The notes beneath the pieces were generated by a model, which worked only from the letters and a program-made list of their open reading frames with translations, ran no database searches and was not told the origin of the DNA. A DNA stretch of 25,117 nt from a virus. This document shows positions 1 through 25,117 of this stretch, piece by piece. The stretch's first letter is position 1. Every line of letters starts with the position of its first letter. The stretch covers positions 1 through 25,117 of IMG/VR virus record IMGVR_UViG_3300028833_003470. The stretch is one strand, 5' to 3'. A program made the position numbers and the translations under genes.

Positions 1-1
1 C

Positions 2-17
2 AGAAAACTTTATATAT
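2..17 (+). promoter_or_regulatory. Candidate archaeal promoter (purine-rich BRE followed by TATA box TTTATATA at 9-16)
   Basis: AGAAAAC-TTTATATAT matches the methanogen BRE/TATA consensus; it lies at the window edge, so upstream context is unknown. Confidence 0.5.
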
Positions 18-883: not shown

Positions 884-1102
884 ATGGATAAAGGAAGATT
901 AACAACATTAATCAGCGATTTAGGACTGATACTAGTCGCTATTGCAACCTTGCTTGGCATTAGTCTTGATCCTAACTTGGCAACTGCGATAGTGAGTGCA
1001 GTAGTATTGATTATTATCGCATTACTGGATGTTTACCATCCTGAATACAAGGACATAATTGATAATATTGATGATTCAGAGGAGTTGGATGGAGAAGAGT
1101 AG
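884..1102 (+). CDS. Holin-like small membrane protein (72 aa)
   Basis: Two hydrophobic helices (LGLILVAIATLLGI; LATAIVSAVVLIIIALL) and a highly charged C-terminus; GGAG RBS at 872-875. Holin function is inferred from topology. Confidence 0.6.
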   Translation: MDKGRLTTLISDLGLILVAIATLLGISLDPNLATAIVSAVVLIIIALLDVYHPEYKDIIDNIDDSEELDGEE

Positions 1103-1436
1103 TCCGACTTTTTATGACCATCTTGACTTGAATAATCGTGTAACCAAACTGGAATCAGAGAACAAGACACTCTTCAATGAGATAAGGGAAATCAAGGATG
1201 CTTTAGGTGAGAATACTGATGCTTTGAATAATCTGAACAGTACCTTGAATGAGGAGCGAGTCAATAATACCAAGGCGATTAACGAGTTAACTACCTTGTT
1301 GCACGAGGAGAAGTTAAGGGTCGAGTTGATGAATGAGAAAGAATCCACCGAACTGGGCATCAGGAGTACTATTTATACTGGTGTCATTGTGGGTGTTGCC
1401 TTGTTGATTGTTGAGGGATTATTGAGGATATTGTGA
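1089..1436 (+). CDS. Coiled-coil protein with C-terminal TM anchor (XhlA/holin-accessory-like)
   Basis: Heptad-rich body (RVTKLESENKTLFNEIREIKDAL...) and C-terminal hydrophobic helix IYTGVIVGVALLIVEGLL. ATG 1089 follows AGGAG and is preferred over the track start at 1059. Confidence 0.6.
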   Translation: MEKSSPTFYDHLDLNNRVTKLESENKTLFNEIREIKDALGENTDALNNLNSTLNEERVNNTKAINELTTLLHEEKLRVELMNEKESTELGIRSTIYTGVIVGVALLIVEGLLRIL

Positions 1437-1909
1437 TTTTTATGACTGATGATGATAATAAGATTGAAGAGAGGAATATGGTTCAGGGGAAGAAGCCCCC
1501 ATTATTCATTAAAGAGCCTATCCTTAAGCAGAAGCTTTTGTCTATGATTGAAAAGGGCAATTATATTAGTACTAGTTGTGAGGCTTGTGGTATTAATCCA
1601 TCTACTTTGACTTATTGGAGAACCAAGGCTAGAGAGGGTAAAGAGCCTTATGTTAGTTTTTTTGCAGAGTTGCGAGAAGCCGAGAGAAAGGCTGAAACTG
1701 TTATAGCAGAGGGAATCTATGATATCGGTTTCGATAAGAGGAATTGGACTGCCCTTGCTTGGTTATTAGAGAGGAAGAACCCTGAAAGATGGGGTAGGAA
1801 AGACAGAGTTGATGTCGCTTCTGATAAGGAGTTTAAGATTGAGATTACTAGTACTAAATCCGAGCATAAGATGAGTGAAGAGGATAGGAAGAACCTAGAA
1901 GAGGAATAG
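1433..1909 (+). CDS. terS: Terminase small subunit
   Basis: HTH-like segment (ISTSCEACGINPSTLTYW) and AWLLERKNPERWGRKD motif typical of TerS; immediately upstream of terL. Start may be ATG 1442. Confidence 0.8.
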   Translation: MIFMTDDDNKIEERNMVQGKKPPLFIKEPILKQKLLSMIEKGNYISTSCEACGINPSTLTYWRTKAREGKEPYVSFFAELREAERKAETVIAEGIYDIGFDKRNWTALAWLLERKNPERWGRKDRVDVASDKEFKIEITSTKSEHKMSEEDRKNLEEE

Positions 1910-1910
1910 T

Positions 1911-3128
1911 ATGCCAACAGTTGAGTGGAAGTTGAGTGAGAAACAAGCCGAGTATTTGTATGATAAGCATAGGTATTTGGTTGTTGAGGGTAGTGCTGGA
2001 TCTGGAAAAACCCTGTTTGCTTGTCATAAGGTTTTATTGTATGCTTTCACTCATAAGAATGCGAAGATTGGTGTTTTTAGGTTGACTTTACCGAGCCTTA
2101 AGCAGACTGCTTGGTTGGAGATTAGGCAATTGTTGGATAAGTATGATTTGCCTTATCAGGAGAATAAGACCGAGGGTGTTATGACTTTCCCTAATGGTAC
2201 AACCATCATATTCAGGGCTTTAGACGATATGAGGAAAATTCGTAGTCTTAACCTTGATCTAGTCTATGTGGAGCAATGTGAGGAAATTGATAAGGATATC
2301 TTTATGGAGTTGGATTCAAGGGTAAGAGGACAAGCTAGTATTGATGATTATGGTCAATTATTGCTTGTTGTTACTCCTGAAATGCAATCTCATTGGATTT
2401 ATAAAAGATTTCATAAGATTGAGGATGAGGATGCTTGTGTTGTCCATTTCCATTATACAGAGAATCCTTTTGTTGATGATAAGTATATCAAGATGGCAGA
2501 GGATAGGAAGAAGTTTGATTATGATACTTATGCACGATTAACACTTGGTAAATGGGGCTTGGTTGGTGATATTATTTATCAGAACTGGGATATCAAGGAA
2601 TCCAGTAGAGGTTTCGAGTATTATACTGGTGGTTCTGATTTTGGTTTCAACAACCCAAGTTGTTTCTTATTGGTTGGTTGGTTGGATAATGAGGCTTATG
2701 TTATTGATGAGGTTTACGAGCGAAACCTTATAAATTACCAGTTTATTGGCAAGGTTAATGAGATGTTGAAGAGGAATAATCTTAACCCAAGCAACCTTGA
2801 TACTGTTTATGGTGATAAGGCAGAGCCTGACCGAATCCAAGAATTTAATGAATATGGTTACAATATGGTTGGTGGAATCAAGGATGTTAATGCGAAGATC
2901 AATGCCACCAAATCAGTTAAAATCCACATAAGCCCAAAGTGTGTGAATACTATTAAGGAGATTGAGAATTACTGCTATCAAAGGGATAAGGATGGCAATG
3001 CTATTGATAAGCCAATAAAATACAATGACCACAGTATGGATGCATTGGGTTATTGTGTTTATGGTACTGTTGGAATCTTAAGCCCTGAACGAAGTATGCC
3101 TGAAAAGGCTACAATCTATGGATACTAA
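1911..3128 (+). CDS. terL: Terminase large subunit (PBSX/Terminase_3-like)
   Basis: Walker A GSAGSGKT, Walker B-like LVYVEQCEE, HW motif, LGKW linker, and RNase-H-like nuclease acidic motifs SDFGFNNP, GDKAEP, NDHSMDAL. Confidence 0.95.
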   Translation: MPTVEWKLSEKQAEYLYDKHRYLVVEGSAGSGKTLFACHKVLLYAFTHKNAKIGVFRLTLPSLKQTAWLEIRQLLDKYDLPYQENKTEGVMTFPNGTTIIFRALDDMRKIRSLNLDLVYVEQCEEIDKDIFMELDSRVRGQASIDDYGQLLLVVTPEMQSHWIYKRFHKIEDEDACVVHFHYTENPFVDDKYIKMAEDRKKFDYDTYARLTLGKWGLVGDIIYQNWDIKESSRGFEYYTGGSDFGFNNPSCFLLVGWLDNEAYVIDEVYERNLINYQFIGKVNEMLKRNNLNPSNLDTVYGDKAEPDRIQEFNEYGYNMVGGIKDVNAKINATKSVKIHISPKCVNTIKEIENYCYQRDKDGNAIDKPIKYNDHSMDALGYCVYGTVGILSPERSMPEKATIYGY

Positions 3129-3146
3129 ATGGAGAGATGAATATAT

Positions 3147-4469
3147 ATGGGAATTTTTGATAGGATATATGGGTTCAGACAACGAGAGGTTCGCAACAGT
3201 TATCCTAACGAGGTCAGATTGGCTGATATAAGTGCTAAAGAACCTGATAATCCAAGTGGGAAAGACCTTTACGAGATAACCCCATCTCATATTAATAGGA
3301 CAGTAAGGAACTGCCGATATGCCACACGAGATCCACAAGTACACGGTGTACTGTTGGATATTATGGTGAAATCCAACACTCATTTCGAGATAATTGGGGA
3401 TAATGAACAAGCAGTAAACCATATCAAGAAGATGGATGAGGATTACTGGAATATTAATAAGATTATTGATGAGATGTTTTGGAAAGGGGCAGTTGATGGT
3501 CAAGCCTTTATGAACCTGCGAATCAAGGAGAATCATATATGTCCACGATGGCTTGAATGGGATGGAGAATCCTATAATATTATGGAGATATATGACTCTG
3601 ATGAGGAATTATTAGGTTACAAGCAAGTTATTCAGAAGAATGCGAAGACTAATAATGGTTGGCTTCGCAGGAAATTCGATGAGTTGAAGAACGAATCCTC
3701 CGAGGAGGTTGAGATAAACTTTGAACCATCCGAGGTAATTCATATGAAATACCTTGAGAGGGATGGAATAGGTCATAGTCTTGTAGTGAATGTACTTGAT
3801 GATGTGATGTACAAGAGGAAGCTCAAGGAACTTATGACTTTGACTGTTTATAAGAATAGTAATCTTGTTGTTGTTACTATGGGTAACGAAGACAAGATGA
3901 ACACTTACCTTGATGAGGATGCACGAAATATGGTAGTGGAAACTGTATCCGACTTCGACCATAAAGGTGCAGTAGTAGTGCCATATGGAATAGGTCTTGA
4001 AGTGCTTAAGGGTGGAACATTACCTGAAATCCAAGACTACCTCAAATACTATGAGAGATGCATTTATGTAGGATTGAACACTCCTGAAGCTGTATTCAAC
4101 TCCGAATCAAGTAACAGAGCAACAGCCGACATCCAACTTGACAGTAAGACAAGTGGTAGAATACTCTTCTTCCAATACAATCAAGAATGGGTTACCAAGT
4201 ATATTGAAGAACTGTTCAGAAGAGAACTTGAACTTCAAGGCATAAGTGGATATGTGACTATTGAATTCGAGAACCTCACAGAAGATGAAGATGGGGATGA
4301 GAATTCTGATGATACTGATCCTGAAAGCTTACACAAGCCAATAACAAAGAAAGGTCAAGAGGATATTGACAAGACTGGCACTACTGGGATAAAGAAAACC
4401 AGTACGAACTCTGATAATGTTCATAATGATGTTAAGAATCGAAGTCAAACGAATACTGCAGGAGGTTGA
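3147..4469 (+). CDS. Portal protein
   Basis: 440 aa directly after terL; helical core with SNRATADIQ-type stem motif and a disordered acidic C-terminal tail; GGAG RBS at about 3131. Confidence 0.85.
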   Translation: MGIFDRIYGFRQREVRNSYPNEVRLADISAKEPDNPSGKDLYEITPSHINRTVRNCRYATRDPQVHGVLLDIMVKSNTHFEIIGDNEQAVNHIKKMDEDYWNINKIIDEMFWKGAVDGQAFMNLRIKENHICPRWLEWDGESYNIMEIYDSDEELLGYKQVIQKNAKTNNGWLRRKFDELKNESSEEVEINFEPSEVIHMKYLERDGIGHSLVVNVLDDVMYKRKLKELMTLTVYKNSNLVVVTMGNEDKMNTYLDEDARNMVVETVSDFDHKGAVVVPYGIGLEVLKGGTLPEIQDYLKYYERCIYVGLNTPEAVFNSESSNRATADIQLDSKTSGRILFFQYNQEWVTKYIEELFRRELELQGISGYVTIEFENLTEDEDGDENSDDTDPESLHKPITKKGQEDIDKTGTTGIKKTSTNSDNVHNDVKNRSQTNTAGG

Positions 4470-4474
4470 AGTGA

Positions 4475-5266
4475 ATGGTTAGTGATGGATTAAAACATCT
4501 TATCAAGACTCCTGCTGATTTAACTGATGAGGTTTTTGATTTCAAGAACCTTGACTCTGATGAACAAGCCTACATCATCGCTTTATTATTTTATTATAAT
4601 GATTTTGCCTTGAAGTATCAGGGCAAGACAAGAGCATATATTGAATCTCATTACGAGGATGATATTGATGCCTTGCAAGAGAAACTCCTTAAGGCTAATG
4701 AGAAACAATTCGAGAAGATGTTTGAAACTTTCAAGAGAAAACAACTTGAGAATGATAAGAACCTCCCAAGTAGCAAGTATGGTAAGGTTACTTGGAAAGG
4801 CTTCAATAAGGCAAGTATGAGCAAGAAACTCACATTCGAGGTTGTTACTCAAAGCATTAAGGACATCTGCTCTGAATTGAAGAGAGAAATAGGTTTGCAA
4901 TTGAAAGTCCACGAAGACATCAATTATAAGGCTTCTGACTTCTCAATCAAGGCGAAACTTGACAAGGGAGCGAAGAAGCTTAAAAAGGCAGGGAAGTTTA
5001 CTGCAGGTAGATTAAGGCAGAAGACAGAACGAGCCTACCAAGACTTCCAAAACAAGCCACAAACCCTCTACAAATGGCAATGCTCATATGTAAGGAATGT
5101 GCCTTGTGCTTGGTGCGAATACCAACAATTACAACCACCAAGACCAATCGATGACTGGGAATATGACCACCCAAATGGACATTGCACACTAGTACCAATA
5201 AATGGAACAGAAGCCTATTCCGATGATTATCTTGCAATAGCAGAATTCCTTGATGAGGAAGATTGA
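4475..5266 (+). CDS. Head morphogenesis/minor head protein (Mu gpF / SPP1 gp7-like)
   Basis: Follows the portal; C-terminal YKW..CAWC...HPNGHC matches the family CxxC...HPNCRC motif. Confidence 0.8.
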   Translation: MVSDGLKHLIKTPADLTDEVFDFKNLDSDEQAYIIALLFYYNDFALKYQGKTRAYIESHYEDDIDALQEKLLKANEKQFEKMFETFKRKQLENDKNLPSSKYGKVTWKGFNKASMSKKLTFEVVTQSIKDICSELKREIGLQLKVHEDINYKASDFSIKAKLDKGAKKLKKAGKFTAGRLRQKTERAYQDFQNKPQTLYKWQCSYVRNVPCAWCEYQQLQPPRPIDDWEYDHPNGHCTLVPINGTEAYSDDYLAIAEFLDEED

Positions 5267-6132
5267 TATTTATGAAATTTATTAACCTTTTTGGAGTTGG
5301 TACAGTTGATTATGCTGATGAGGGATTCGACAAGCCAGTAAGGTTCAGTAGTGAAACCCTCAAATATCTAGCCGAAAACCTAGGCGAAACCAAACTCACA
5401 AGAGAACATACAGATGAGAATATTGGATCATACAATAATTTCCGATTCAAAGATGATTTCCTCCAAGTCGAAGTACCTGATGATTTCGAGGGTGGATTAT
5501 CACCAGTATTCCAAGCAGATTGGAATCTTGTTGGAGATTACTATGAACCAGTACCGAATAGTTTACGAATGACCAGTATTGGATTAACAAATAATCCACG
5601 AACTGGAATAATCTACAACAGTAATAAGGGAGATGATACTGTGGATGATAATAAATTCAATGACTTGTTAACTAGGAAAGATGAGAGAATCACCGAACAG
5701 CAAGAAGAGATAGCAATACTACGAAAACAGTATGAAGAATTACAAGATAAATTTAATGATTCCAGTAAAGAATCCAAGGAGTTACAAGCAAAGATAAAAG
5801 AATTAACAAACTTGGAAACCGAACTGGAATCTTACAAAGCCGATGCAGAAAAGTACAGAGTACAAGAAGCTGAAGCGAGGGCTGAACTCATCACACAAAT
5901 TGCAGGTGATGATGAAAAAGCCAAAGAAATCTTCAAAGACACTAGTGTTGAGGATTTAAAGTATATGCTTGAGCAGAAAACAGTAACCGAACCTCCAAAG
6001 GGTGCGACTACTAATAATGCTCAAGGGAATGTGCAAGATGGTTCTGAACCACCTGCAAGTAAAGTGAATGAGGATGATAAATACACTTATGAGGCTTTCA
6101 AGGAATGGGAAGACTCATTAGATGAATGGTAG
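5263..6132 (+). CDS. Prohead protease fused to a scaffolding domain
   Basis: N-terminal EHTDENIG (His) and SIGLTNNPR (Ser) resemble Mu gpI/HK97-type protease motifs; the C-terminal half is a charged coiled coil. Start may be ATG 5272. Confidence 0.75.
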   Translation: MIFMKFINLFGVGTVDYADEGFDKPVRFSSETLKYLAENLGETKLTREHTDENIGSYNNFRFKDDFLQVEVPDDFEGGLSPVFQADWNLVGDYYEPVPNSLRMTSIGLTNNPRTGIIYNSNKGDDTVDDNKFNDLLTRKDERITEQQEEIAILRKQYEELQDKFNDSSKESKELQAKIKELTNLETELESYKADAEKYRVQEAEARAELITQIAGDDEKAKEIFKDTSVEDLKYMLEQKTVTEPPKGATTNNAQGNVQDGSEPPASKVNEDDKYTYEAFKEWEDSLDEW

Positions 6133-6176
6133 TCCTCAAATGAAAAACAACTAATATATATTATGGAGAATAGAGA

Positions 6177-6737
6177 ATGACCGAAAATACATTAGGAACT
6201 TTCTATGACAAAGAACAAGGTAAAACCTACGAAGTCAACGAGGGCGATGTAACTGTCGCAGAGGGCTACAGTACCTTAAATGCAAGTAAACAGAAATTCA
6301 TCTCCTTTGAAAACCCAGTAGGTGCAGAGAACTTTTTAGAATTTGATTTCAGCGATGACTTATTAGTCAAGGGTGCAACTACCAAAGCAACCCACATCAC
6401 AATGTACGAGCCTGAATTCCCATATGGAAAACTCCCACAAGAAGATGTTGAAGATGGAAGCTACAGAAGATTCGTAACTGCATTCGAGTTAAAAGTAGGA
6501 GAAGTACAATTACCACTTTCCGATACTAACTCTGCAATCGCAAAAGGTAATGGATTAAAGATTACTGATTACCATACTGGATTGGACAAGCATACTAATG
6601 ACTCCGAAATCGTAGCACTTGAATCCAAACCTGCAAATAGTGGTGGATACATCATCGCATACCTCAAAGTACCATACTTGACTGTTGGTGGAGCATCAGC
6701 CTCTTCTAGTGGTAGTGGATCAGGTAGTGGATCATAA
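6177..6737 (+). CDS. Probable capsid decoration/cement protein
   Basis: 186-aa beta-rich protein between scaffold and MCP, a common decoration-gene position; GGAG RBS; ends in a Gly/Ser tail. Confidence 0.55.
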   Translation: MTENTLGTFYDKEQGKTYEVNEGDVTVAEGYSTLNASKQKFISFENPVGAENFLEFDFSDDLLVKGATTKATHITMYEPEFPYGKLPQEDVEDGSYRRFVTAFELKVGEVQLPLSDTNSAIAKGNGLKITDYHTGLDKHTNDSEIVALESKPANSGGYIIAYLKVPYLTVGGASASSSGSGSGSGS

Positions 6738-6788
6738 TTACAAACTTAACTTTTTCAATTATTAAACTTATAATGGAGAATCACAATA

Positions 6789-7748
6789 ATGGCTAACGAA
6801 AATCAATTACAAAAAGTGGATGGAGCATACCATAGTGGATACTATACTGCTAAAATCAGAAAAGATGTAGCAAAAGAATTCAAGATGGCAGGACTCTTCC
6901 CAACCCAAAAAGTATCTGATAAGAACATCACAGTAACTGATGTAAACACTTATGATGAGATTGAAGACCAAGTAAAAGGCAGAAAGAAAAAACTGGAAGC
7001 AAAAGGAACTAGTCTTCGTAAAATCAGAGCAAGAGTAGTCACCCCAGAGGGTTTCAGACTTGAGCAATATGGTATCGAAATGGATATCGAACAGAGAGAT
7101 TTGCTTGAACAAAGAATATCCATTACTGATGTTATGAAACCAGTAACCAAGTACCTTGCACAAGAAATCGACAACAATGTATACCAATCTGCAGTTTCCT
7201 ATGCTACTGATGAAAGCACCAATTATGGATTAACCAACAACTGGACTAACTCCGAAATCGAGGACATCCTCCACGATATCATCACCATCAAAAACAAGAA
7301 ACTGGAAGAGGGTTACGATATCAACCACATAATGCTTGGTATGGATGCAAAAACCAAACTTGACATCTTAAGTGCATCCAAAGACATTGTAACCTCCAAA
7401 TACATCTTCGGACACAACAACTTCGAGTTAGACAACACCATCACCCTGAATGATATGGTATTCAGTTGGGGTGGAAAAACAATGGATGGTAAAGAATTAT
7501 TAGCATTCTGTACCGATGCACCTGCACTTGAAATCTTCTACCTTGACTTCTTCAACCCTAATGTGCAAAGAGTACCATCTATTGGTCAATATGAAAAATA
7601 TGCACCATTAATCAATGTCTTGAAGTACGATAATGCTAAAGAAGAACACGAACCTATCATCAAGATGAAATTCGCTACTGCAGTAGGTACTTACCCATTA
7701 GAAAAAGGTAAGAGAATGCTTAAAGTACCTAATGTAATGGGTAACTAA
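6789..7748 (+). CDS. Major capsid protein (HK97 fold expected)
   Basis: 319 aa at the expected position; GGAG RBS at about 6775; E-loop/P-domain-like pattern (LAQEIDNNVYQSA; YDINHIMLG). Confidence 0.85.
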   Translation: MANENQLQKVDGAYHSGYYTAKIRKDVAKEFKMAGLFPTQKVSDKNITVTDVNTYDEIEDQVKGRKKKLEAKGTSLRKIRARVVTPEGFRLEQYGIEMDIEQRDLLEQRISITDVMKPVTKYLAQEIDNNVYQSAVSYATDESTNYGLTNNWTNSEIEDILHDIITIKNKKLEEGYDINHIMLGMDAKTKLDILSASKDIVTSKYIFGHNNFELDNTITLNDMVFSWGGKTMDGKELLAFCTDAPALEIFYLDFFNPNVQRVPSIGQYEKYAPLINVLKYDNAKEEHEPIIKMKFATAVGTYPLEKGKRMLKVPNVMGN

Positions 7749-7778
7749 ACCTGATAATACTTTTTAAGGAGATATTCA

Positions 7779-8774
7779 ATGGAAAACAAGATGGAAGACT
7801 ATTATAAAGTAATGCAATATCTCCGAGAAATGTTCGTAGACAGACAATATCCTTATGAGTTTGAAGATGAGGAACTGTTGGGTTCTGATTCTTCAATATC
7901 TCTTGTTGATTCCGAGTATGGTGACTTCGAGAAAAGCCTACAATTGGAAAGTATCAAGAGTGGTGATGTACTCCGAATGACATTACCCAAACCAAGAGAT
8001 TTCACCGATTGCACAAGCTTTGAAGTCAGTTTCTATTGTAGTGAGGAGTTTGATCCACAGAACCTTGTCATTGGTTTCAGTAATAAGAAGAAAGGCTACA
8101 TTAATCAAGTCGAGCTTGATAGTGGCAATATTATTGAGGCTGAAACCTACTTGAACAAGGGTGGGCATTACCTCATCAAATACAACCTAAAGGATACTAA
8201 TACCAAGATGGCTAAAAAGGATAGAAGATTATCCCATACCGAGTCAATTAATCTGATATTTGGGCAGGAAGTTAATGAGTTAATCCTTTATGATGCAGTT
8301 TTACGAACTGCTAATAATCATATTACCCTTGAGGACTTGGATGAAACAATATTGATGGGTACATATTATATTCAAAACCAATTATTATTGGAAGATGCAG
8401 AAGATATTCCATTGCCATTGCAACACTTGAATTATAAATCTGCAGGTGCTTACACTTGGTTGATATGGTGGGAGAACGAGAGCAAAGTTATGGATGATGC
8501 CACTAAAGAGGGCAGAAACTATGCCACAAGACTTTTCGACCAAATCGACCTCTTCCTACAAAAATGGTTAGAAGCTCACCCAACTGGAAACACCGACCCA
8601 AATATGAAACTCTTGGGATTCACAACCTACCAAGACTTCCCAATCAAACGAAGAATCCACGAAATAGGAAACAACCAAATCTATGTCTATGACCCTGAAG
8701 ACCTACGAAACTATAATACAATGAGATTAGTCATCAGTAACCGACTTGACTTATTAGGTGCAAAAGGAGGATAA
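7779..8774 (+). CDS. Head-tail adaptor-like protein with an inserted beta-sandwich domain
   Basis: First gene after MCP; helical C-terminal part (TLEDLDETI...YATRLFDQIDLFLQKW) resembles gp36/gp6-type adaptors; aa ~35-177 are beta-rich; AGGAG RBS. Confidence 0.6.
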   Translation: MENKMEDYYKVMQYLREMFVDRQYPYEFEDEELLGSDSSISLVDSEYGDFEKSLQLESIKSGDVLRMTLPKPRDFTDCTSFEVSFYCSEEFDPQNLVIGFSNKKKGYINQVELDSGNIIEAETYLNKGGHYLIKYNLKDTNTKMAKKDRRLSHTESINLIFGQEVNELILYDAVLRTANNHITLEDLDETILMGTYYIQNQLLLEDAEDIPLPLQHLNYKSAGAYTWLIWWENESKVMDDATKEGRNYATRLFDQIDLFLQKWLEAHPTGNTDPNMKLLGFTTYQDFPIKRRIHEIGNNQIYVYDPEDLRNYNTMRLVISNRLDLLGAKGG

Positions 8775-8778
8775 ACTT

Positions 8779-9246
8779 ATGAGTGTCTTAAAAGAAATAC
8801 TGGAAAACCTTGCCGAATATATGGCAAACCATCCTGAATTCAAAGACTACTCCGACCTAGAATTCTACTTCCACGAGGCAGAGATGAATGGGAATACTGA
8901 AGTGCCTTGCATCTGTTTCCAAGTAGGTTACAATGATGATAACAGCGAAAAGAAGACAATTAATCGTGATTGTCGAGAATTCTTCAGAGGAATGAAGATA
9001 GAGTTGCATACACGAACCATCGACCATTCAACCTTGCAAGATGAGTTATGGAACTTCGAGGAAACCTTATTCAAGGTATTCAGTAATATTGCCTTTGAAA
9101 ACATCCATCCAAACTTGCACGATGTCAAATATGTAGGCACAAACCCAATCGCCCACATATACTGGCAACCATTCAAGGATGAAAAAGAAGAGGAATGGTT
9201 TAGCAACTGCATAACAATACTCTACGAACTAGACTACACAATATAG
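8779..9246 (+). CDS. Probable tail terminator / tail completion protein
   Basis: About 155 aa with alternating alpha/beta pattern (PCICFQ...IELHT...ITILYELDY) before the tube gene. ATG 8779 follows GGAGG and is preferred over 8758. Confidence 0.65.
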   Translation: MSVLKEILENLAEYMANHPEFKDYSDLEFYFHEAEMNGNTEVPCICFQVGYNDDNSEKKTINRDCREFFRGMKIELHTRTIDHSTLQDELWNFEETLFKVFSNIAFENIHPNLHDVKYVGTNPIAHIYWQPFKDEKEEEWFSNCITILYELDYTI

Positions 9247-9250
9247 CGAG

Positions 9251-9460: not shown

Positions 9461-9464
9461 TATT

Positions 9465-10613: not shown

Positions 10614-10644
10614 GAGCCTTTGTAATCGCTCAATTTCAACCATT

Positions 10645-10692
10645 ATAACCCTAAATCCTTTTTATTAGGGTTATTCCTTTACTATTTTTCTA
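10645..10692 (+). terminator. Stem-loop plus T-rich tract after the tube gene (terminator or operator)
   Basis: ATAACCCTAA (10645-10654) / TTAGGGTTAT (10665-10674) perfect 10-bp inverted repeat followed by TCCTTTACTATTTTTC. Confidence 0.55.
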
Positions 10693-11674: not shown

Positions 11675-11679
11675 ACAAT

Positions 11680-16809: not shown

Positions 16810-16828
16810 TTTTCCCTTTTAATTTTTT
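16810..16828 (+). terminator. Oligo-T tract after the tape measure gene (archaeal-type terminator candidate)
   Basis: TTTTCCCTTTTTAATTTTTT directly after the stop codon. Confidence 0.35.
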
Positions 16829-16857
16829 AAGATAATAATATAATGAGGTTATTGAGT

Positions 16858-17487
16858 ATGGCAGATTTTTACAATTTTACATTCCAACCGAACTTTCACA
16901 TTTGGAGAGATTTCAATGTTAAGTTTAATTGTCAGCAGATGAATTGGACTGATACTGATAATGATAGTGTGATGGATATTGGTGAGAGAGCAGGTTTCAG
17001 ATTAATCTTGGCATCTAGTCTTTCCAATGTTGATATGGAGATTACTAAAGAGAGTGATATTGGCGATGATAGTATTATTAATTATGATGGGTACTTGAAT
17101 GCTGATGGTGAGCATATGACTAGTCTTGCTTTTGAGGGTCTTCGAGAGGAGGTTACTGATGAGAATAGTGAGGTTGAGTTTAAGTATTATTACAAGCCGA
17201 TTTATTTGGATTTCCACGAGAATGATGGTGGTTTTATTATTACTGTTGCAGGTACATCCAATGAGGGCGAGAATATTATTAGTGACAATACCGACATCAC
17301 CCTTTCTATGCTTGGTGATAGTCCTCAAGACCTAGAAGCCATCTTTATTGGAACTGATGAGTCTAATCCTTATATCATCGCTTATGCAAAGGCTACTAAT
17401 AAGGTTAAAGTTAGGGATGTTTTATCTATTCCATTAGACACACAAATCCTATCTGTGGGTGTTGATGAGTACGATGAATATCAATAA
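16858..17487 (+). CDS. Acidic tail-associated hypothetical protein
   Basis: Beta-rich, strongly acidic ORF between TMP and the giant tail gene. ATG 16858 follows GAGGT and is preferred over 16843. Confidence 0.7.
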   Translation: MADFYNFTFQPNFHIWRDFNVKFNCQQMNWTDTDNDSVMDIGERAGFRLILASSLSNVDMEITKESDIGDDSIINYDGYLNADGEHMTSLAFEGLREEVTDENSEVEFKYYYKPIYLDFHENDGGFIITVAGTSNEGENIISDNTDITLSMLGDSPQDLEAIFIGTDESNPYIIAYAKATNKVKVRDVLSIPLDTQILSVGVDEYDEYQ

Positions 17488-17506
17488 TACTGGGGTTGGA
17501 TAATTT

Positions 17507-20500
17507 ATGAGTTATCAAACAATCGAACCAGTTAGTGTGAAACAATCTGATGAGAATCGTTTGTGGTATAATCTTGCTACTCTTGTGCCTCAAGATACTG
17601 TCTACGATAATACTACAGAATTGGTGCAGACAAGGAGTGGTTATGCCGAGTGCATCTTGAATGGTTTCTATTACGATGAGAACAAGCCTAATAGTTTGAC
17701 CTTTGATTTCGGAAGTACCGAGATAACCGATACCACTAATATCAATAATGTCAGATTCTATTTCAGAATGTATGTTATTGGTGATGGTAGGACTAATATG
17801 GTTTCACAGACTCCGAAGCCGAATGTGAAGCTTTGGACTCATCTTGACCCTGATAGGACTTATGATTGGCACGATAGTGATGAGTATTTGAAGCTTGTTG
17901 ATGAGATGGATCATAATTATTATGTTGATGCCGAGGCTAGTTATTTGAATGATAATTATGATAGTGGTTATACTGATTTTACTGTTACTTTTAATAATAT
18001 TAGTATGGGTAATGTCTTGTCTTCTAGTTTCTTCAATAATGGGTTCGGTATTAGTTTGGAGTTTCCTCCGAGCAAGTGTATGGTTGAGCATCGTGTTATC
18101 TTTGAGAGTGTTTATTGTGTATTGAATTATGGCACTGATGGTGGAATGACTGTTACTTGTGATAATGAGGAAACTTATACTGTTAATACACTTAACACTA
18201 TTCAATTCACTATCGTTGAAGATACTGATGTTGACAGTAGGATCAGTTTTGAGGCTGATGGTGATGGATTATATATTAACCCTTACAATAATGTGGGGGT
18301 TGAGAATGGTCACCCTTTGAGTACTGATGACCCTTATAAATTTGCAGAGGTGCAGACTTATGGTGGTAATACTGTTGTTGTTACTTTGCATTTTGTTCCG
18401 ACAAAGGTTGGTGATTGTAGTTTCAAGGTTACTGTTAATGAGGAGTTGACTCCGAGAGTATTCAATTTTACTGTTGTTGGTAATGATGAGGATACTTATT
18501 ATCCAGTTTATGATTTTGAAGAGAACACATTAACATTTTATGGTGATTTCACAAGTGATACCGAGGCTTATGTTCAAGATGGAACAATAAGGTACAAGGA
18601 TGTGAAAAGCATCAAAGCAGAAGCCTTATTACCAAATTACATTATCGTTAATGGAGAACAACACTCTAATGACCCTAATGATTTTATCTTCAGAGTTACT
18701 GTGGAATTATGGAATAATGTTGATGGAACAGTTAACTATGATGGACATCCTATCTCATTTACTGGTTCATTCACAGAAACCCTCATAACTGAAACAGTAT
18801 CTTCTGATTCAGTAGTTGTAACTACAGAGGATGATGAGAGAGAAATACCTATTGACTTATCCACTATAACTAAAACTGGTACATATAATAATGATACTGG
18901 AGCAATGACTGGTGCTACTGTTTTCACAGAGAGTTATCAGGAAGTTCATTCTTATACTCCAAGCTTAAACCTTTATGATAGTTTATTGAAGATTCATAAC
19001 ATTGGCACTACTGATGCTCAAGGAATAACCACACCATTATTCAGTATTGGTAATGTTGAAGTGTATAGGAAGTATTCAAGTGGAAATTATAGATTGTTAG
19101 ACCCTCATTTTTATTCATTATCTGTAAGTGATGGTGAGTTATTATTGAAGACTTTTGAGGGCAGATACTATGATGATGGGGAATCCCCTGATAGCACTAT
19201 CCAAGATATCAAAACATACAATAAGGATTATCACGATAAGGTAGTAGTCCACATAACACCTTTAAGGAACGAATACAACTTCCAATTAACTAGTCAAGGA
19301 ATGAGCAACACCACACAAAAAACCAACACCTACTACCAACTCATATCCCCAAACAAATATACTGTTGGCTCTGTCTTGAACCTCCTACCTGCAACTGCTT
19401 ATATGCAAGAGAGGACAAAAGTCACAATTGAAAACTTTGAAACTGGTGAGAATGATATAATCCATTACTATGCTTATATCAAGGATGGAGTTCAAATCAA
19501 TAAATCTGATGCCTTGAACGAGGATGGCACACTTAAAGAGGGAGTGACTTTTGAGGAAGTGACAGAAGATGAAGCTTATATTACTTATTACTGGTTTAAT
19601 AATACTGCTTTCTCTGAAGAAGAAGTACTAACTCTGATAAGTGACTTTGAAGACTGTACTCTTGGACTTGACCCAAGCCAATACGAGAACTTGGGAACTA
19701 CTAATGTTCGTATGATGAGATTGATGAGAACAACAATCATACCAAAATACGAGTCTGTTCTTTCATTGGATTTCAGTAAATGCCACTTCATACTCAAAAA
19801 ACCACAAAATGATATCAGAGTAGAACTGCCAGTACCTTACATTGGAGCAGTTAGATTGCATCGTTGCCACAAGGCTGATGTGACAAACACAACCACCAAC
19901 AGCCTAATCCGAGAAGTCTACCAAAACAGACAATACTATGGTAAAAAAGGTGACTGGGAAGAAAAAATCACAATGACACTTCGTATGCCTTGGCAAGACA
20001 TCGTAACCCTACAAGGACACACAAGAGCAGATATGCCAATCCCAATCGACATCAACCCATTACACCCTGATGGTGACCCACTCAACCATAGAGGATGGGC
20101 AGAGATAAGCAGTACTGGAGAAATCACAAAAATTAATGATATGCTCTACCAATGCAAACCTGAAGTCACTTATTTGACTCACGAGCTTATTGGAAGATTT
20201 GCTATTACTCAAGATCCTGATAGAATCTGTAATCAAGACCCTCCAATCAATATGCTTAAAACCCACGAGTATTGGGAGGATGACAGAGAAGTCCTAGACT
20301 TATCAAGTTACTTGAATTTCCATAATATGCCAATCGGCGATGGAATGTTCAAAGGAGTATACACAGTAGCAGATGATAATGAATATGTCTTTGATTTGAA
20401 AGGAACTGTTTCCAGTATTGGTAGATATAATTGGAGATGGAGAAACATATTACCTGCATTGGGTACTACTGCTCACGATGATAATCGTTGGCAGACTGCT

Positions 20501-23500
20501 ATCAGAGTATTGGGTGCATCTGATGATTCCCTGCTCTTCGAGTACTTGTATAAGGATTTCAAACACTATGATGGAGATAACTTGCTTAACGAGTCAGATG
20601 TAAGAGTACTGCACAAGAACCCAGTAACTGGACTCTTGGACACTATCGATTACACCCATATGAACCTTGACTTCGATGAAGTTGGAGCAGAAGTCAGTAT
20701 TGACAAGACAAACACTTACATTGAGATTCCAAAACAAGACCAAACACTATTTGAGAAAGGTAGAAACCTCTACTTCACCTTGAGAGATAGCAGAGGATAT
20801 GGAATACCAAACAAGGATGTTGATGTTAATATTATAAATAATCACGATGAGGTAATATATTCAATCCCTGCCTTGACTGATGTGAATGGTAATCGTGATG
20901 TTGAGCTTAATCTTGAAAGTGGAGATTATACTGCTCAATTATTGTTTAGTGGTGATGATAAGTACAATCCTTGTTCAATCGAGTATTACTTTACTGTTGA
21001 CCTTGTATACAGACAAGGAACAGAACTTGCTATATACAATGAGTATGGTGGATATGGATATGACATCAACAACGAGTACATCGAGGGAAGATTACTAACA
21101 GATGATGACCGACCAATAGCAGGTGAAAAAGTCTATGTAAGCATCTACCAATACACCCCAACAACCCTCAAAGTCAATGGAAAAAGAAAAACCTTTAATT
21201 TCAAAACAACAATATCTTCAGAAGTAGAATGCACAACAAGTGCTAGAGGATGGTTCAAGGCAAAAGTAAACCTATTAGGTGTTCAAGCAGGAACATTTAC
21301 TGCCGAGGCTGTCTACAAGGGAACTGATTATTATCAGAAAAACAGTTATAGCAGAACTTTTACTATGCACCAATGGTACAAGCATAAGACTTCCATTACT
21401 ACTAGCGACCAAAAATACGAGCAAGGTAAGGAATACAATTTCGTAGCAACCCTCAAAGACCATAAAGGAAAACCAATCAAAGGAGAAACACTACGATTCG
21501 GTATCCACAATTACCAAACTGGTATCAACCAAAGATTCGCAATCAAGACAGATAAGAATGGTCAAGCAAAGATTCCAGTAATGTTCAATAGTGGAAACCA
21601 TCAAATAGACACCTACTACAATGGTAGCAGTAGGTATGAGTACAGCCCTGCAAGAAACACCAACAAGATAACCACTTATGCAAAGGGAAAGGAAACCACC
21701 ACTATAACTGCATATATGATGCATATAGTGGATTATGTGAATGATGAGTACAATGCTTGGTTGAAAGACAGTAGTGGCAAGGGAATCCCTAATGTTCCAA
21801 TCACTTTTGAGATATACGAATTCATTAGAAGCTCCGAGAAAGCAGATGCAGATGGAACTTATAGTGGTAAGAAAGGAGCATTGAAAGAAAGAGGACAAAG
21901 ATTAACCGATGCGAGTGGTCAAGCAGAATGGAACATCAACCTACCTACTGGAGATTATATGGGTTATGCCTATTACGAGGGTGATAACAAGTATGCTCCA
22001 TCAAGTAGGGGAAGAGCAATCCTCATCAGCCGACCACCAACAACTCACAATCTTGACATAACATTCCCACAAGCAAGTGGTGGAACAATACAAGTAACAC
22101 GAGATGAGCAGACTGGTGACCTATCACCAATCATCATACAGTTAACTGCTACTCCGAAGAGTGGTGGAGCAAGTATAAATCCAAAAGGAATCGATGGAAA
22201 AATCACCTACACAAACCTCTCTACTGGAAAACAATACGATGGATCATTAGTGAACACAACAATCACAAGTGATGCAAATGGTCAGATAACAATCTACCCT
22301 ACTCTTGAGAAAGGCAACTATCGTATGAATATTGAAACCTATGGAGCTTCAATCGATAAGAACCACGATGGTGTGTTTGAAACAGTATTCGCAGGTAAGG
22401 AGTCAAGTGTTCAATTGAATGTGACTAATGACTGCTATATGGATACCCTTATTGATGTTGTTGAGGCTAATGATAATGTTGTGGATGTTCGTAAGGATAG
22501 TAGCGAACCTATAAGGATTTTGCTTAAGGGTATTGATGAGGCTACTGGAGAACCTTTCCTTATTCCGAACAAGAGAGTGAGTGTTCAATATGCTTATACT
22601 TACAATAATAAGACAATCACTTCAAGTAAAGAATACTTCACAACCGATGAGAATGGATTAATCAATTACACTAGGAAAATCGGTTATACTGGAACATTAA
22701 CAATCAGTTATAGTGGAGATATCGGTTATGACAGTTGCTTGAAAACAATAACTGTAAGTGTACACGATAAGAGCCAGTATATTCCACATTTCAGTTACAA
22801 GATGAACACCGACACCATAAGGTATGAAGCATTGCCTTTAAACATCAGAAGCTTCTATAAAAATGGTGACACCAAGTACCCTACTTCAAATACACGAGTG
22901 AGGATTCAAGTTACTCATAGCAACCCACTAGTTTATAATAAAAGTTTCACTAGATACACAGATGGCAATGGTTATATTGATATTAATCTTGTTTTCCCTG
23001 AAAATGGAAAATACACTATCAACTTGTATGCTATCAAGGAAGTGGATAATGTAACATCAGAGGTTCTTGTCAAGACTTTGCCAACTGTTAATGTGGATGG
23101 TGCAAACAAGGGTACAGATACAGAGCCAGTAGAATACTTGCCTAACAAGTTACCTACTACTCTTGAATTCGTAAGCCCTGACAAATCTGTTGGTGGATTA
23201 GTCAAAGAACCAATCCAACATACTGTGACTAGATTCCCATACCTACTCAAAGCAAAGGTCAGTTACTTCGATGAGGGAGTAAAAAGAGTACTGCCAAACC
23301 ACAGATGCAGAATATACTTCACACTCACAAATGGAGTGATTGAAGAGTATCAGCGATATACTGATACTGATGGAATAATGACATATGAAAGTCTTCCATT
23401 GAGTTATGGAGAATACCCAGTAACCATCGAGGTAGAAACTGATGACACCTATGCAACAAGCAACATCAACACAGTATTAATCGTTACCGAAGAAGCCGAG

Positions 23501-25117
23501 AAAAGCTTCGATAGTCCATCCCCTGCAAAAGCACACTTGCAGAAGAAGAAAGGACAAGTAACACCACTTGAAACACCACTTGTAGAAACTTATGATGGTA
23601 TTGAGTATGGATCAACTGCCGAGATGACATTCAATGGAAACTTGCTTGATTTCCAAGATTATGGGTTAACACAGAACACTAGTCTTGTTGGAGCAAAGAT
23701 ATCATTAACTGATATTGAGTTACCTAAAGATGAGAAAGGCTACAAACTACAATTCCTTACACGATACAATAATGATGTTGACAACACAGTAGATGAACTA
23801 CTAGGCACATTGCAAGTTGAAATAACAGATGACAAAATAAGCAAACTGTACCAACAATTCTATGAGAACCTAGTTGTATCCCCTGCTCCATTGTACAACC
23901 ATAAACTGATGTTCACTAGAGAGGCTGAAGATGGAACATTATATTACTATGATGTAACCAGTAACATTGATGTGAAACGATACAGACTTTCTCCATTCCT
24001 ACAATACAAGGGTGGAGTAAACCTAGAAACTGCATCAGGGGTAAGCATCTTCGACCTAGAAACTGGAGTAAGCCCAGTTATCATCAATAATGGATTAATC
24101 AAGGCAGAATTCAACAAGAGAAGTGGATTCGTAAGAGTAGCAAGATACGATGACAGAACAAAAACTTGGAACTGGGTCAGATGGCTACAAGTCGAGGAAA
24201 ACTTCTACAAGATGGAATTACTCCATTACTCAACCGATAAGATAAGCTTGAAAATGGGCAACACCACTTGGACTGTATGGAGAGGCAGACCTTGGATAGA
24301 AATCAAACACGAAGATGATGACATCAGGATCATCGGAGAAACCAACAAGACCTATGCAGAAATCCTCCATAACGATACAAGGTATCAGATAATGAGTGAA
24401 GTGGATACTCACAATGGAATATTCAATACCTACAATGCAATCAATTACTTCGGTAAGGAATTGAATATCACAGAGAATATTAAAAGGGATAACTTCACAA
24501 TTACTGGTGCAACTGCATCTACTCCAATTGACATCAGCCTTATCGGTGAAACTTGTCTTAAGGTGGATGCTAATAGTGATGAGTATCATATCAAGCTTCC
24601 TCAAGTACAAAGACCATCAGATGATATCTTCACATTCCTTATCGATAGATTGAAGATGGATAATGTTGATAATATCAAGATTACCTGCAATGCTTATGAT
24701 ACCAAGGGTGGAGAGTTTGTAGCAAGTGCTTACAAGGAATTTGATGTTGAAACTACTGGCGATGAAACTGTTACTGATTTAGTTTCAGATGGCAGATTGA
24801 ATACTGGTTTCAGGTCAGTATTCGACTTATCAGATTTCAAAGACAAGGACAATAATTCAATAAAGGAAACCACTTACTGGCATAATAATGAACAAGTAAG
24901 TAAAGAAGATGCATATGTCACCATAATTGATGAGGAAGATGGCACTACATACACAGAACTTAAGGAAAATATCGAGATTAAGGAAACTTTCGGTGCGAAG
25001 TATGAGAAGTGTAATTTCCTAGAATTTGACATTGAATTGCATAAGACAGTTAGTAGTAATAACAGTTATGCGATAATCAATCACCTGATGTTGTCCGATG
25101 GTGATAACAGACTAGGT
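17507..25117 (+). CDS. Giant multidomain tail-tip/adhesin protein, at least 2537 aa, 3'-truncated by the window
   Basis: Read by hand from ATG 17507 (MSYQTIEPVSVKQSDENRLWYN...) to the last base (...LSDGDNRLG) with no in-frame stop. Absent from the ORF track, presumably because no stop lies in the window. Confidence 0.9.
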   Translation, partial: MSYQTIEPVSVKQSDENRLWYNLATLVPQDTVYDNTTELVQTRSGYAECILNGFYYDENKPNSLTFDFGSTEITDTTNINNVRFYFRMYVIGDGRTNMVSQTPKPNVKLWTHLDPDRTYDWHDSDEYLKLVDEMDHNYYVDAEASYLNDNYDSGYTDFTVTFNNISMGNVLSSSFFNNGFGISLEFPPSKCMVEHRVIFESVYCVLNYGTDGGMTVTCDNEETYTVNTLNTIQFTIVEDTDVDSRISFEADGDGLYINPYNNVGVENGHPLSTDDPYKFAEVQTYGGNTVVVTLHFVPTKVGDCSFKVTVNEELTPRVFNFTVVGNDEDTYYPVYDFEENTLTFYGDFTSDTEAYVQDGTIRYKDVKSIKAEALLPNYIIVNGEQHSNDPNDFIFRVTVELWNNVDGTVNYDGHPISFTGSFTETLITETVSSDSVVVTTEDDEREIPIDLSTITKTGTYNNDTGAMTGATVFTESYQEVHSYTPSLNLYDSLLKIHNIGTTDAQGITTPLFSIGNVEVYRKYSSGNYRLLDPHFYSLSVSDGELLLKTFEGRYYDDGESPDSTIQDIKTYNKDYHDKVVVHITPLRNEYNFQLTSQGMSNTTQKTNTYYQLISPNKYTVGSVLNLLPATAYMQERTKVTIENFETGENDIIHYYAYIKDGVQINKSDALNEDGTLKEGVTFEEVTEDEAYITYYWFNNTAFSEEEVLTLISDFEDCTLGLDPSQYENLGTTNVRMMRLMRTTIIPKYESVLSLDFSKCHFILKKPQNDIRVELPVPYIGAVRLHRCHKADVTNTTTNSLIREVYQNRQYYGKKGDWEEKITMTLRMPWQDIVTLQGHTRADMPIPIDINPLHPDGDPLNHRGWAEISSTGEITKINDMLYQCKPEVTYLTHELIGRFAITQDPDRICNQDPPINMLKTHEYWEDDREVLDLSSYLNFHNMPIGDGMFKGVYTVADDNEYVFDLKGTVSSIGRYNWRWRNILPALGTTAHDDNRWQTAIRVLGASDDSLLFEYLYKDFKHYDGDNLLNESDVRVLHKNPVTGLLDTIDYTHMNLDFDEVGAEVSIDKTNTYIEIPKQDQTLFEKGRNLYFTLRDSRGYGIPNKDVDVNIINNHDEVIYSIPALTDVNGNRDVELNLESGDYTAQLLFSGDDKYNPCSIEYYFTVDLVYRQGTELAIYNEYGGYGYDINNEYIEGRLLTDDDRPIAGEKVYVSIYQYTPTTLKVNGKRKTFNFKTTISSEVECTTSARGWFKAKVNLLGVQAGTFTAEAVYKGTDYYQKNSYSRTFTMHQWYKHKTSITTSDQKYEQGKEYNFVATLKDHKGKPIKGETLRFGIHNYQTGINQRFAIKTDKNGQAKIPVMFNSGNHQIDTYYNGSSRYEYSPARNTNKITTYAKGKETTTITAYMMHIVDYVNDEYNAWLKDSSGKGIPNVPITFEIYEFIRSSEKADADGTYSGKKGALKERGQRLTDASGQAEWNINLPTGDYMGYAYYEGDNKYAPSSRGRAILISRPPTTHNLDITFPQASGGTIQVTRDEQTGDLSPIIIQLTATPKSGGASINPKGIDGKITYTNLSTGKQYDGSLVNTTITSDANGQITIYPTLEKGNYRMNIETYGASIDKNHDGVFETVFAGKESSVQLNVTNDCYMDTLIDVVEANDNVVDVRKDSSEPIRILLKGIDEATGEPFLIPNKRVSVQYAYTYNNKTITSSKEYFTTDENGLINYTRKIGYTGTLTISYSGDIGYDSCLKTITVSVHDKSQYIPHFSYKMNTDTIRYEALPLNIRSFYKNGDTKYPTSNTRVRIQVTHSNPLVYNKSFTRYTDGNGYIDINLVFPENGKYTINLYAIKEVDNVTSEVLVKTLPTVNVDGANKGTDTEPVEYLPNKLPTTLEFVSPDKSVGGLVKEPIQHTVTRFPYLLKAKVSYFDEGVKRVLPNHRCRIYFTLTNGVIEEYQRYTDTDGIMTYESLPLSYGEYPVTIEVETDDTYATSNINTVLIVTEEAEKSFDSPSPAKAHLQKKKGQVTPLETPLVETYDGIEYGSTAEMTFNGNLLDFQDYGLTQNTSLVGAKISLTDIELPKDEKGYKLQFLTRYNNDVDNTVDELLGTLQVEITDDKISKLYQQFYENLVVSPAPLYNHKLMFTREAEDGTLYYYDVTSNIDVKRYRLSPFLQYKGGVNLETASGVSIFDLETGVSPVIINNGLIKAEFNKRSGFVRVARYDDRTKTWNWVRWLQVEENFYKMELLHYSTDKISLKMGNTTWTVWRGRPWIEIKHEDDDIRIIGETNKTYAEILHNDTRYQIMSEVDTHNGIFNTYNAINYFGKELNITENIKRDNFTITGATASTPIDISLIGETCLKVDANSDEYHIKLPQVQRPSDDIFTFLIDRLKMDNVDNIKITCNAYDTKGGEFVASAYKEFDVETTGDETVTDLVSDGRLNTGFRSVFDLSDFKDKDNNSIKETTYWHNNEQVSKEDAYVTIIDEEDGTTYTELKENIEIKETFGAKYEKCNFLEFDIELHKTVSSNNSYAIINHLMLSDGDNRLG
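20702..23490 (+). repeat. About 8 tandem degenerate Ig-like repeats (~100-130 aa each)
   Basis: Recurring T-x-I/L ... L(K/R)D..G..I ... TD.NG ... G.Y ... Y.G...Y motif, e.g. LKDHKGKPIKG..TDKNGQA..GNHQIDTYYNGSSRY and LKDSSGKGIPN..TDASGQA..GDYMGYAYYEGDNKY. Confidence 0.8.

Follow-up and report, generated by a model that had tools for sequence, protein, structure and literature searches.

Here, we describe a regional recoding of silent sites in the virus record IMGVR_UViG_3300028833_003470, the 25,117 bases of which represent the entire viral contig (referred to below as the window) with every gene on the (+) strand. Within these co-oriented genes, silent sites are pushed region by region to either keto (G/T) or amino (A/C) bases. 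This recoding resembles that of GRINS, in which intense, positively correlated GC and TA skews of both signs occur within genes by a mechanism that is unknown (Nivina et al. 2021; PMC8256042).

The close relatives of the window come from rumen-type metagenomes. Among them, G001 is 89–94% identical to the window, complete at 56.7 kb, and flanked by terminal repeats, L032 and L033 cover its right half, and G002 (~84–86% identical) represents the outgroup. More distant members of the family include L022, L023, and L024 (portal 43–56% identical), L028 (tail-tip proteins 70–72% identical), and L030/L031. Sequence clusters of the portal gene and of the 214-aa tail gene comprise 144 and 200 members, respectively. 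The best annotated TerL relative (48%) is Caudoviricetes sp. vir249, and because its host is listed as Methanobacteriales, we infer a host from the same order. G001 and its relatives encode an XPF-type nuclease (ERCC4+HhH), a primase-polymerase-type protein, and TFIIB-type zinc ribbons, and gene content points to what is probably a tailed archaeal virus with a Methanobrevibacter host. A search of reference genomes for close prophage relatives returned only 27–28% TerL matches, in Lachnospiraceae. The genes and compositional domains of the window are as follows (keto3, keto fraction at third codon positions):

1–883, (+) strand: non-coding leader, G/T-rich (keto ~0.64–0.66) and T-rich
1059–3923, (+) strand: keto domain with a small open reading frame (ORF), TerS, TerL, and the first half of the portal gene; keto3 0.67–0.73
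1433–1909, (+) strand: TerS
1911–3128, (+) strand: TerL
3147–4469, (+) strand: portal gene
3924–12954, (+) strand: mostly amino domain with the head and tail-shaft genes, including the major capsid protein (MCP)-like gene; short keto islets
6789–7748, (+) strand: MCP-like gene, among the head and tail-shaft genes; keto3 0.37
12145–16809, (+) strand: tape-measure gene, 1554 aa
13894–14382, (+) strand: amino block in the tape-measure gene, followed by a very sharp amino-to-keto switch at ~14380
14383–18574, (+) strand: 4.2-kb keto domain with the C-terminal half of the tape measure and the 214-aa gene, extending ~356 codons into the giant tail protein
16843–17487, (+) strand: 214-aa gene; its position fits a distal tail protein, family not shown
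17507–25117, (+) strand: giant tail protein gene, open at its 3′ end
18575–25117, (+) strand: fine mosaic, mostly amino, with keto/amino runs of 10–25 codons in the rest of the giant tail gene, including 19319–19357 and 19883–19936

Keto and amino patches at third codon positions

The initial annotation of the window proposed that third codon positions alternate between almost pure G/T-ending and A/C-ending blocks and that neither gene-specific codon bias nor amino-acid composition explains the alternation. Its second claim is borne out by synonymous shuffles within genes. Specifically, the lag-1 autocorrelation of the third-position keto state was 0.18, compared with 0.038 ± 0.010 after shuffling, and runs proved longer than the shuffled expectation, as the annotation had anticipated: there were 76 runs of at least 10 codons (25.5 ± 4.0 in shuffles that retained amino acids and codon-junction dinucleotides) and 21 of at least 14 codons (4.5 ± 2.0 shuffled), the longest A/C run spanning 22 codons (tail 0.003) and the longest G/T run spanning 27 (tail 0.025). 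Third-base choice depends in part on the base that follows (keto 0.64 before G and 0.40 before C); even so, a shuffle that also fixed this following base, i.e., the 3-1 junction dinucleotide, left z scores of 12.9 (lag 1) and 5.5 (lag 20). Since the autocorrelation persists after fixing the next base, amino-acid composition together with avoidance of CG and TA at codon junctions was rejected as its cause. An assembly or chemical-conversion artifact was also ruled out, given the independent assemblies, the transversions, and the intact long ORFs; the pattern is common to independent assemblies that are 84–97% identical (r = 0.81–0.88 in 20-codon windows).

The best two-state hidden Markov model (HMM) had P(keto) of 0.37 and 0.71 with a dwell of ~60 codons, and a three-state HMM (0.30/0.59/0.75) fitted slightly better. 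The HMM yields ~80 segments per 25 kb, many of them within single genes. The four stretches that the initial annotation quoted are in frame with the giant ORF and have the codons described, its base count for 11521–11580 is exact (33 A, 13 C, 9 G, and 5 T), and all 14 of its blocks lie inside two-state HMM segments of the claimed type, some of which span gene junctions (9246/9251 and 11674/11680) as it had reported. The segments concerned are the following:

3924–4286: A/C segment
5000–5260: A/C segment
6100–7847: A/C segment
8496–9521: A/C segment
11350–12087: A/C segment
13894–14382: A/C segment
21398–21706: A/C segment
21995–22366: A/C segment
1059–2900: G/T segment
13378–13602: G/T segment
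14383–15093: G/T segment
16096–17433: G/T segment

The description of these blocks as almost pure holds for selected short runs and for 17800–18550, but the overall contrast between the two HMM states is moderate. Sharp switches, defined as a change of at least 0.66 between flanking 12-codon windows, numbered only 13. A shared motif at the switch points, which the initial annotation had suggested looking for, was not found; the repeats of the leader (see below) were not shared with other switches, and GGCC provides no anchoring, as this tetranucleotide is absent. The window contains 0 copies of GGCC, compared with 32.3 ± 5.9 expected from dinucleotide-preserving shuffles, which suggests avoidance of a GGCC-specific host restriction enzyme. 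Keto/amino state showed no gene-start or gene-end effect (ramp), and the giant protein has neither internal protein repeats nor periodicity in its pattern.

The contrast between block types is concentrated at position 3 (keto 0.72 and 0.36), while positions 1 and 2 remain almost constant (0.52/0.49 and 0.43/0.42, respectively). Third positions consist of A.17, C.11, G.23, and T.49 in keto blocks and of A.39, C.25, G.12, and T.25 in amino blocks, so GC3 is equal in both; in keto blocks, G/(G+A) rises to 0.57. Most of the switch at fourfold sites is carried by A<->T transversion. Because T/(T+C) and G/(G+A) co-vary (r = 0.43–0.57; 0.34–0.46 within genes) and GC3 does not, a single keto/amino axis is indicated; neither GC3 nor purine content shows a comparable structure. 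Adjacent codons couple T with G and C with A (odds ratio 2.0). A coupling over 1–3 codons is the finest layer of the pattern, with lag-1 coupling also present in Methanothermobacter virus psiM2 and L024. The silent first position of Leu follows the same axis, C-starting codons making up 13% vs 32% (CTA vs TTA) and 13% vs 30% (CTG vs TTG), while CGA vs AGA, a choice between two amino bases, shows no shift. Amino-acid use differs slightly as well: Gly, Val, Asp, and Ala are 1.15–1.19 times as frequent in keto as in amino blocks, in comparison with 0.63 times for Pro (2.3% vs 3.6%), 0.80 times for Gln, and 0.87 times for His (odds ratio of the shift 0.83, p = 0.007).

The axis is strand-like, in line with the initial annotation: GC and TA skews in 150-nt windows correlate at r = 0.48 in the window and 0.39 in G001. 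The correlation was 0.32 in L022, 0.18 in L023, −0.28 in L024, and 0.04 in L028, and it was 0.00 in both T7 and psiM2. The spread of gene means was 0.135 in the window, 0.086 in G002, ~0.085 in the distant relatives, and 0.035 in T7. The keto/amino pattern, which T7 and psiM2 lack and distant relatives show weakly, is therefore specific to a lineage and is not shared by phages at large or by the whole virus family.

The pattern is layered along the window. In the left half, gene means fall gradually from 0.71 to 0.35, and apart from this gene-level gradient, within-gene structure spans only 1–3 codons. The mosaic layer of 10–25 codons sits in the tape-measure and giant genes. The purest stretch of the window is the keto domain at 14383–18574 (keto3 0.70–0.83), which is kept in G001, L032, L033, G002, and, more weakly, L030, with third-position identity to the window falling as low as 0.5–0.6. 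In L028, this tail-tip keto domain is absent (keto3 0.40–0.62) despite 70–72% protein identity. The amino dip at 13894–14382 is common to G001, L033, G002, and L030, and the giant-gene mosaic (18575–25117) correlates weakly with that of L028 (r = 0.16).

Substitution regimes and exchange between strains

A total of 629 silent changes, each private to one ingroup sequence and supported by the outgroup, could be polarized, with the local state given by the consensus of the neighboring codons, focal site excluded. A block definition on the window itself was circular for this purpose and was discarded. Per 1,000 keto sites, keto-to-amino changes were half as frequent in keto blocks (23.9) as in amino blocks (47.2; z = −4.65), and the amino-to-keto rate barely differed between block types (43.5 vs 37.3). 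The implied equilibria (0.65/0.55/0.44) follow the actual states (0.71/0.54/0.41) with a slight regression towards the mean, indicating that the blocks are being kept up in this clade. Implied equilibria at non-synonymous and non-coding sites were 0.38–0.47, i.e., amino blocks lie near the apparent mutational baseline, and therefore only keto blocks need a special force.

These 629 changes were fitted best by a one-parameter class shift (log-likelihood −60.7), which gained 7.6 units over a common spectrum (−68.3) and 12.8 over a reverse-complement spectrum (−73.5). The block types thus differ by a bias on keto/amino base class, not by a mirrored mutation spectrum. The initial annotation had instead invoked single-strand exposure of alternating strands and expected the polarized changes to be C>T and A>G on one strand and then the other. 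That model accounts for the axis but fails four tests, those of the spectrum (the reverse-complement fit is the poorest among the three), of transversions (A<->T accounts for a large share of the switch), of non-synonymous changes (unbiased, see below), and of the leader. Moreover, keto blocks show no raised C>T rate (42 vs 51 per 1,000).

Specifically, the polarized changes in the leader imply an equilibrium of 0.47, compared with 0.66 observed, and its G/T richness is therefore not kept up by a G/T-favoring substitution regime. The leader evolves three to four times slower than silent sites, which shows that it is constrained rather than neutral and hence functional, whether as an extended 5′ leader, as an origin, or in packaging. 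It contains direct repeats of 24–42 nt (14–55/682–723 and 119–142/535–558; also 324–361/642–658), and AAAACTTTATATA at 4–16 is the sole BRE/TATA-like consensus match in the window, one match being within chance expectation. In G001, the strongest amino-to-keto switch of the whole genome falls in the leader, in the region homologous to this site.

Cast as a strand-asymmetric mutation pressure, the exposure model of the initial annotation would have single-strand exposure linked to replication, transcription, or repair act with varying polarity, and the leader would be the flip point, as an origin or promoter. The jump at the leader fades over ~4–5 kb to either side and is also seen in three distant relatives, the two states have approximately complementary compositions, and the first position of Leu and amino-acid usage move in the expected direction; moreover, leading strands are classically marked by G>C with T>A, which splits codon usage (PMC2671203). 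Nevertheless, we consider this explanation improbable, since it faces the above difficulties of spectrum, transversions, non-synonymous sites, and leader equilibrium and, in addition, would require dozens of polarity changes within genes that share no common motif and show no gene-start or gene-end effect.

In alignments of eight strains, patch haplotypes are shared, as is usual where phage populations recombine. Neighboring keto/amino differences that separate the window from G001 are co-directional (0.175 vs 0.003 ± 0.026, 6.6 standard deviations [SD]), and extreme tracts of ~80 bp contain 14–17 one-way differences with few or no amino-acid changes. The following strain-variable patches exemplify this behavior:

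23722–23801, (+) strand: strain-variable patch, A/C-ending in the window and G/T-ending in G001, with no amino-acid change
19096–19179: similar patch
21526–21621: similar patch

Across 23722–23801, the window and G001 differ by 16 same-direction keto/amino differences (A>G 6, C>T 7, and A>T 3) plus 3 class-preserving ones. The window uses TTA, GGC, AAA, CTA, CAA, ACA, CGA, TAC, AAC, GTA, and GAA, where G001 has TTG, GGT, AAG, TTG, CAG, ACT, AGG, TAT, AAT, GTT, and GAG. Co-circulating strains exchange short tracts, some of which flip the patch state by silent changes only. As the state can differ between close strains at identical codons, it is hard to reconcile with strictly position-specific selection.

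Fine-scale mosaicism between oppositely replicated lineages had been the alternative offered in the initial annotation. The shared haplotypes and co-directional differences directly support mosaicism as such, but not a passive mosaic of oppositely skewed parents, i.e., tracts derived from lineages with uniform opposite skews and no present force, which we regard as decidedly improbable. Recombination between strains is evident, the kilobase domains match exchangeable modules (packaging, head and tail shaft, and tail tip), the window is more heterogeneous than G002 and the distant relatives, and the blocks lie a little further from the mean than their implied equilibria, all of which would fit. 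However, 0 of nine related genomes is uniformly keto or amino, block-specific substitution regimes persist (z = 3.97), the left-half pattern outlasts silent-site saturation, and this reading would leave the rise of the skewed parental lineages to be explained.

Possible silent-site selection and proposed strand-polar mismatch filtering

The gene means from TerS to the tail-tube gene are mirrored in relatives with saturated silent sites (r = 0.60–0.85). The TerS, TerL, and portal-start genes are keto-rich there too (0.58–0.82), and in all of these relatives, A-rich DNA lies upstream and the keto-rich genes set in where the structural operon begins. Such conservation of gene means would fit silent-site selection on late mRNA, a codon-usage landscape whose outcome recombination would only shuffle. 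A/C-ending codons, which form Watson-Crick pairs with G34 and U34 tRNAs, would be favored in the abundant head and tail-shaft proteins, and the low-copy proteins (terminase, portal, tape-measure C-terminus, and tail tip) would be G/T-ending because selection is relaxed or acts for slow decoding or lower mRNA stability. The effect is nearly confined to silent positions, intergenic DNA tracks its flanks only weakly (r = 0.35), and non-synonymous changes are unbiased by block, all of which this explanation accommodates. Phage head and tail genes are known to prefer host-favored codons (PMC2266997), and a force would be required in keto blocks only.

On the other hand, there is no known translational reason for the coupling of T-ending with G-ending codons, and relaxation in an AT-rich genome should give T and A, yet G/(G+A) in keto blocks is as high as stated above. 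A/C-ending codons are not in excess at conserved residues (Akashi-type test, Mantel-Haenszel odds ratio 1.17, Z = 1.58), L028 lacks the tail-tip keto domain in spite of its protein identity, the same codons have different patch states in close strains, and amino-acid usage and the first position of Leu shift too. Selection against local mRNA structure was rejected, as native genes fold more stably than shuffles, not less. Taken together, we consider silent-site selection unlikely as the source of the patches, although less so than the mutational and passive explanations, and regard it as the main rival of the reading preferred below.

The excess stability was seen in 120-nt windows of native coding sequences relative to synonymous shuffles: −24.1 vs −20.3 kcal/mol in the portal gene (z = −6.2), with z = −5.1 in the tape-measure gene and z = −3.1 in the MCP-like gene. 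The complementary composition of neighboring G/T and A/C runs may explain this stable folding; the excess is not interpreted further because dinucleotide content was free to change in the shuffle.

The class-shift result, the share of transversions, the one-way direction of tracts, and the recombination link all agree with a conversion-type bias. EndoMS/NucS, which acts in non-canonical mismatch repair (PMC4838380, PMC8228993), is the only known repair enzyme with a substrate range split along the keto/amino line. NucS prefers G-T, G-G, and T-T mismatches, has little or no A-C activity, and keeps homeologous recombination in check (PMC8228993). The enzyme is abundant in Methanobrevibacter smithii (PMC12134362), and no virus encodes it (PMC8228993). 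Our preferred reading, to which we give a probability of roughly 35%, is that the patches result from strand-polar filtering of recombination heteroduplexes by EndoMS/NucS of the host.

Under strand-polar filtering, the bias would be written during homeologous recombination between co-infecting strains. The host enzyme would cut duplexes with G-T, G-G, or T-T mismatches and ignore those of the A-C type, and the allele surviving in a heteroduplex would depend on which strand invades, as only differences that form amino-amino mismatches could pass. Invasion by one strand would pass only G/T-to-A/C differences and invasion by the other only the reverse, so that tracts would become strand-coordinated. 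Regions in which invasion mostly has the same polarity would turn into lasting keto or amino domains; candidate regions are those beside the leader/packaging end and the frequently exchanged tail-tip module.

Several observations weigh against this reading. Non-synonymous private changes (singletons) carry no block-dependent bias (log ratio-of-ratios 0.05 ± 0.29, compared with 0.84 ± 0.21 for silent changes), and since a mismatch filter would be blind to codon position, this test alone favors silent-site selection by ~10:1. The left-half gene pattern (terminase keto and capsid amino) conserved in saturated relatives also fits expression-linked codon selection. Furthermore, the co-directionality of strain differences is partial rather than absolute, no polarity-setting site or motif was found in the window, and the connection of EndoMS/NucS to this virus and its actual host would rest on premises from the literature. 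Our literature search found no published link between EndoMS/NucS and compositional patches.

A broader version of the proposal is that the patches are the footprint of strand-polar biased gene conversion through the keto-only specificity of EndoMS/NucS and that the same process lies behind the GRINS of Actinobacteria; we put this forward tentatively, as somewhat unlikely. Actinobacteria are NucS carriers (PMC8228993), and GRINS are commonest in Streptomyces and tied to gene conversion (PMC8256042). If the link to NucS is true, it would supply a mechanism for GRINS, silent-site composition would record the polarity of past recombination, and genes would receive heritable composition domains, specific to one strand, from the substrate range of a repair enzyme. 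The most tractable place for proof would then be a virus population in which many strains circulate together.

Known compositional systems and further features

The likeness to GRINS extends to several properties. G+T-rich and C+A-rich stretches, i.e., both signs, lie <1 kb apart on one coding strand, the skews are strongest at third codon positions, and amino-acid drift runs the same way, with Gly and Val increased under positive skew and Pro, His, and Gln under negative skew. Mean absolute GC and TA skews exceed 0.15 (0.191 and 0.182 over the whole window in 150-nt windows), but this measure does not discriminate, as psiM2 has 0.177 and 0.150. The likeness is weaker in the skew correlation (r = 0.48 here, compared with 0.70 in GRINS and 0.09 in non-GRINS; PMC8256042). 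Recombination or gene conversion may be a further common element: GRINS are tied to gene conversion, and tract exchange is clear here, between strains and not between paralogous modules, of which the window has no copies. GRINS are duplicated regions of >500 bp with >80% identity in a cluster, whereas the longest self-match in the window is 136 nt at 74%, and they occur in GC-rich actinobacterial genomes rather than in an AT-rich archaeal-viral one. Given skews of the GRINS type but no such repeats, the window represents a variant of the GRINS kind and not a member.

The codon dialects of leading and lagging strands in Borrelia, Chlamydia, and Lawsonia (PMC2671203, PMC2089121) are similar in opposing G/T-ending to A/C-ending codons, with G>C accompanying T>A. 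However, they follow gene orientation relative to the fork, flip only at the origin or terminus, and involve all three codon positions, while here the genes are co-oriented, the state switches within them, positions 1 and 2 stay nearly constant, and neither substitution spectrum mirrors the other. One origin-like jump does exist, at the leader. The codon "genome landscapes" of phages (Lucks et al. 2008; PMC2266997) share a non-random, long-range synonymous pattern with distinct structural genes, and the left-half gradient is similar. Those landscapes run along GC3 or host-preferred-codon axes, whereas here GC3 is flat, the axis is keto/amino, and a sub-gene component differs between close strains.

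Deamination gradients in vertebrate mitochondria and the transcription-associated G+T excess of coding strands are transition-driven and have a single polarity. They resemble the present pattern in that one strand has a keto excess graded by distance from where it starts, which here is visible rightward of the leader, but differ in that transversions and both polarities on one strand occur here and the spectrum test failed.

The GRINS signature occurs here where repeats are lacking, in an archaeal virus for which relatives both near and far are available. Those relatives allowed a first population-genetic dissection, which revealed class-based regimes that include transversions and spare non-synonymous sites. 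The results remove the most intuitive explanation, strand-specific deamination, and leave silent-site selection or a conversion-type bias. Patches of this kind distort host prediction by codon adaptation, dS estimates, and skew-based origin finding in archaeal viruses.

Among ~40 G001 proteins, Pfam detected no polymerase, DNA-acting deaminase, or NucS; it identified a dCTP-deaminase-like protein, a split C5-methyltransferase, the primase-polymerase-type protein, and the XPF-type nuclease. The first of these, a dCTP-deaminase/dUTPase-family protein at 44194–44715 of G001 (L019:4194–4715; Pfam DCD, E = 5e-32), could change nucleotide pools during infection. The primase-polymerase-type protein, which has a CHC2 zinc finger, is encoded at L019:1821–2780 and the ERCC4+HhH nuclease at L019:7303–7998. 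The C5-cytosine DNA methyltransferase (49413–50843) is divided into two ORFs, L019:9413–10006 with the N-terminal motifs and L019:10295–10843 with the C-terminal part, separated by a gap of ~290 bp. Downstream of the tail genes, 34503–35195 (L018:14503–15195) encodes a strongly A/C-ending peptidase C39-like protein (keto3 0.31), a candidate lysin against the pseudomurein wall. The right end of G001 (56241–56676) consists of ~100-bp tandem repeats that are 98% identical and adjoin the terminal repeat called by IMG/VR.

Two segments of the window, 11930–13450 (the tail-chaperone end and the tape-measure N-terminus) and 18586–18972 (a piece of the giant tail gene), have no DNA-level alignment to G001, while their flanks are 89–94% identical; these are typical module replacements. 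The tape-measure protein is 74% identical to that of G001 overall, and its gene contains a degenerate tandem duplication of ~165–168 nt (12760–12895 vs 12928–13060, 74% identity). An antisense ORF of 287 aa on the (−) strand (12099–12962) overlaps the start of the tape-measure gene; because it sits in an A/C-rich block whose complement is A-poor, this ORF probably results from the skew rather than being a gene.

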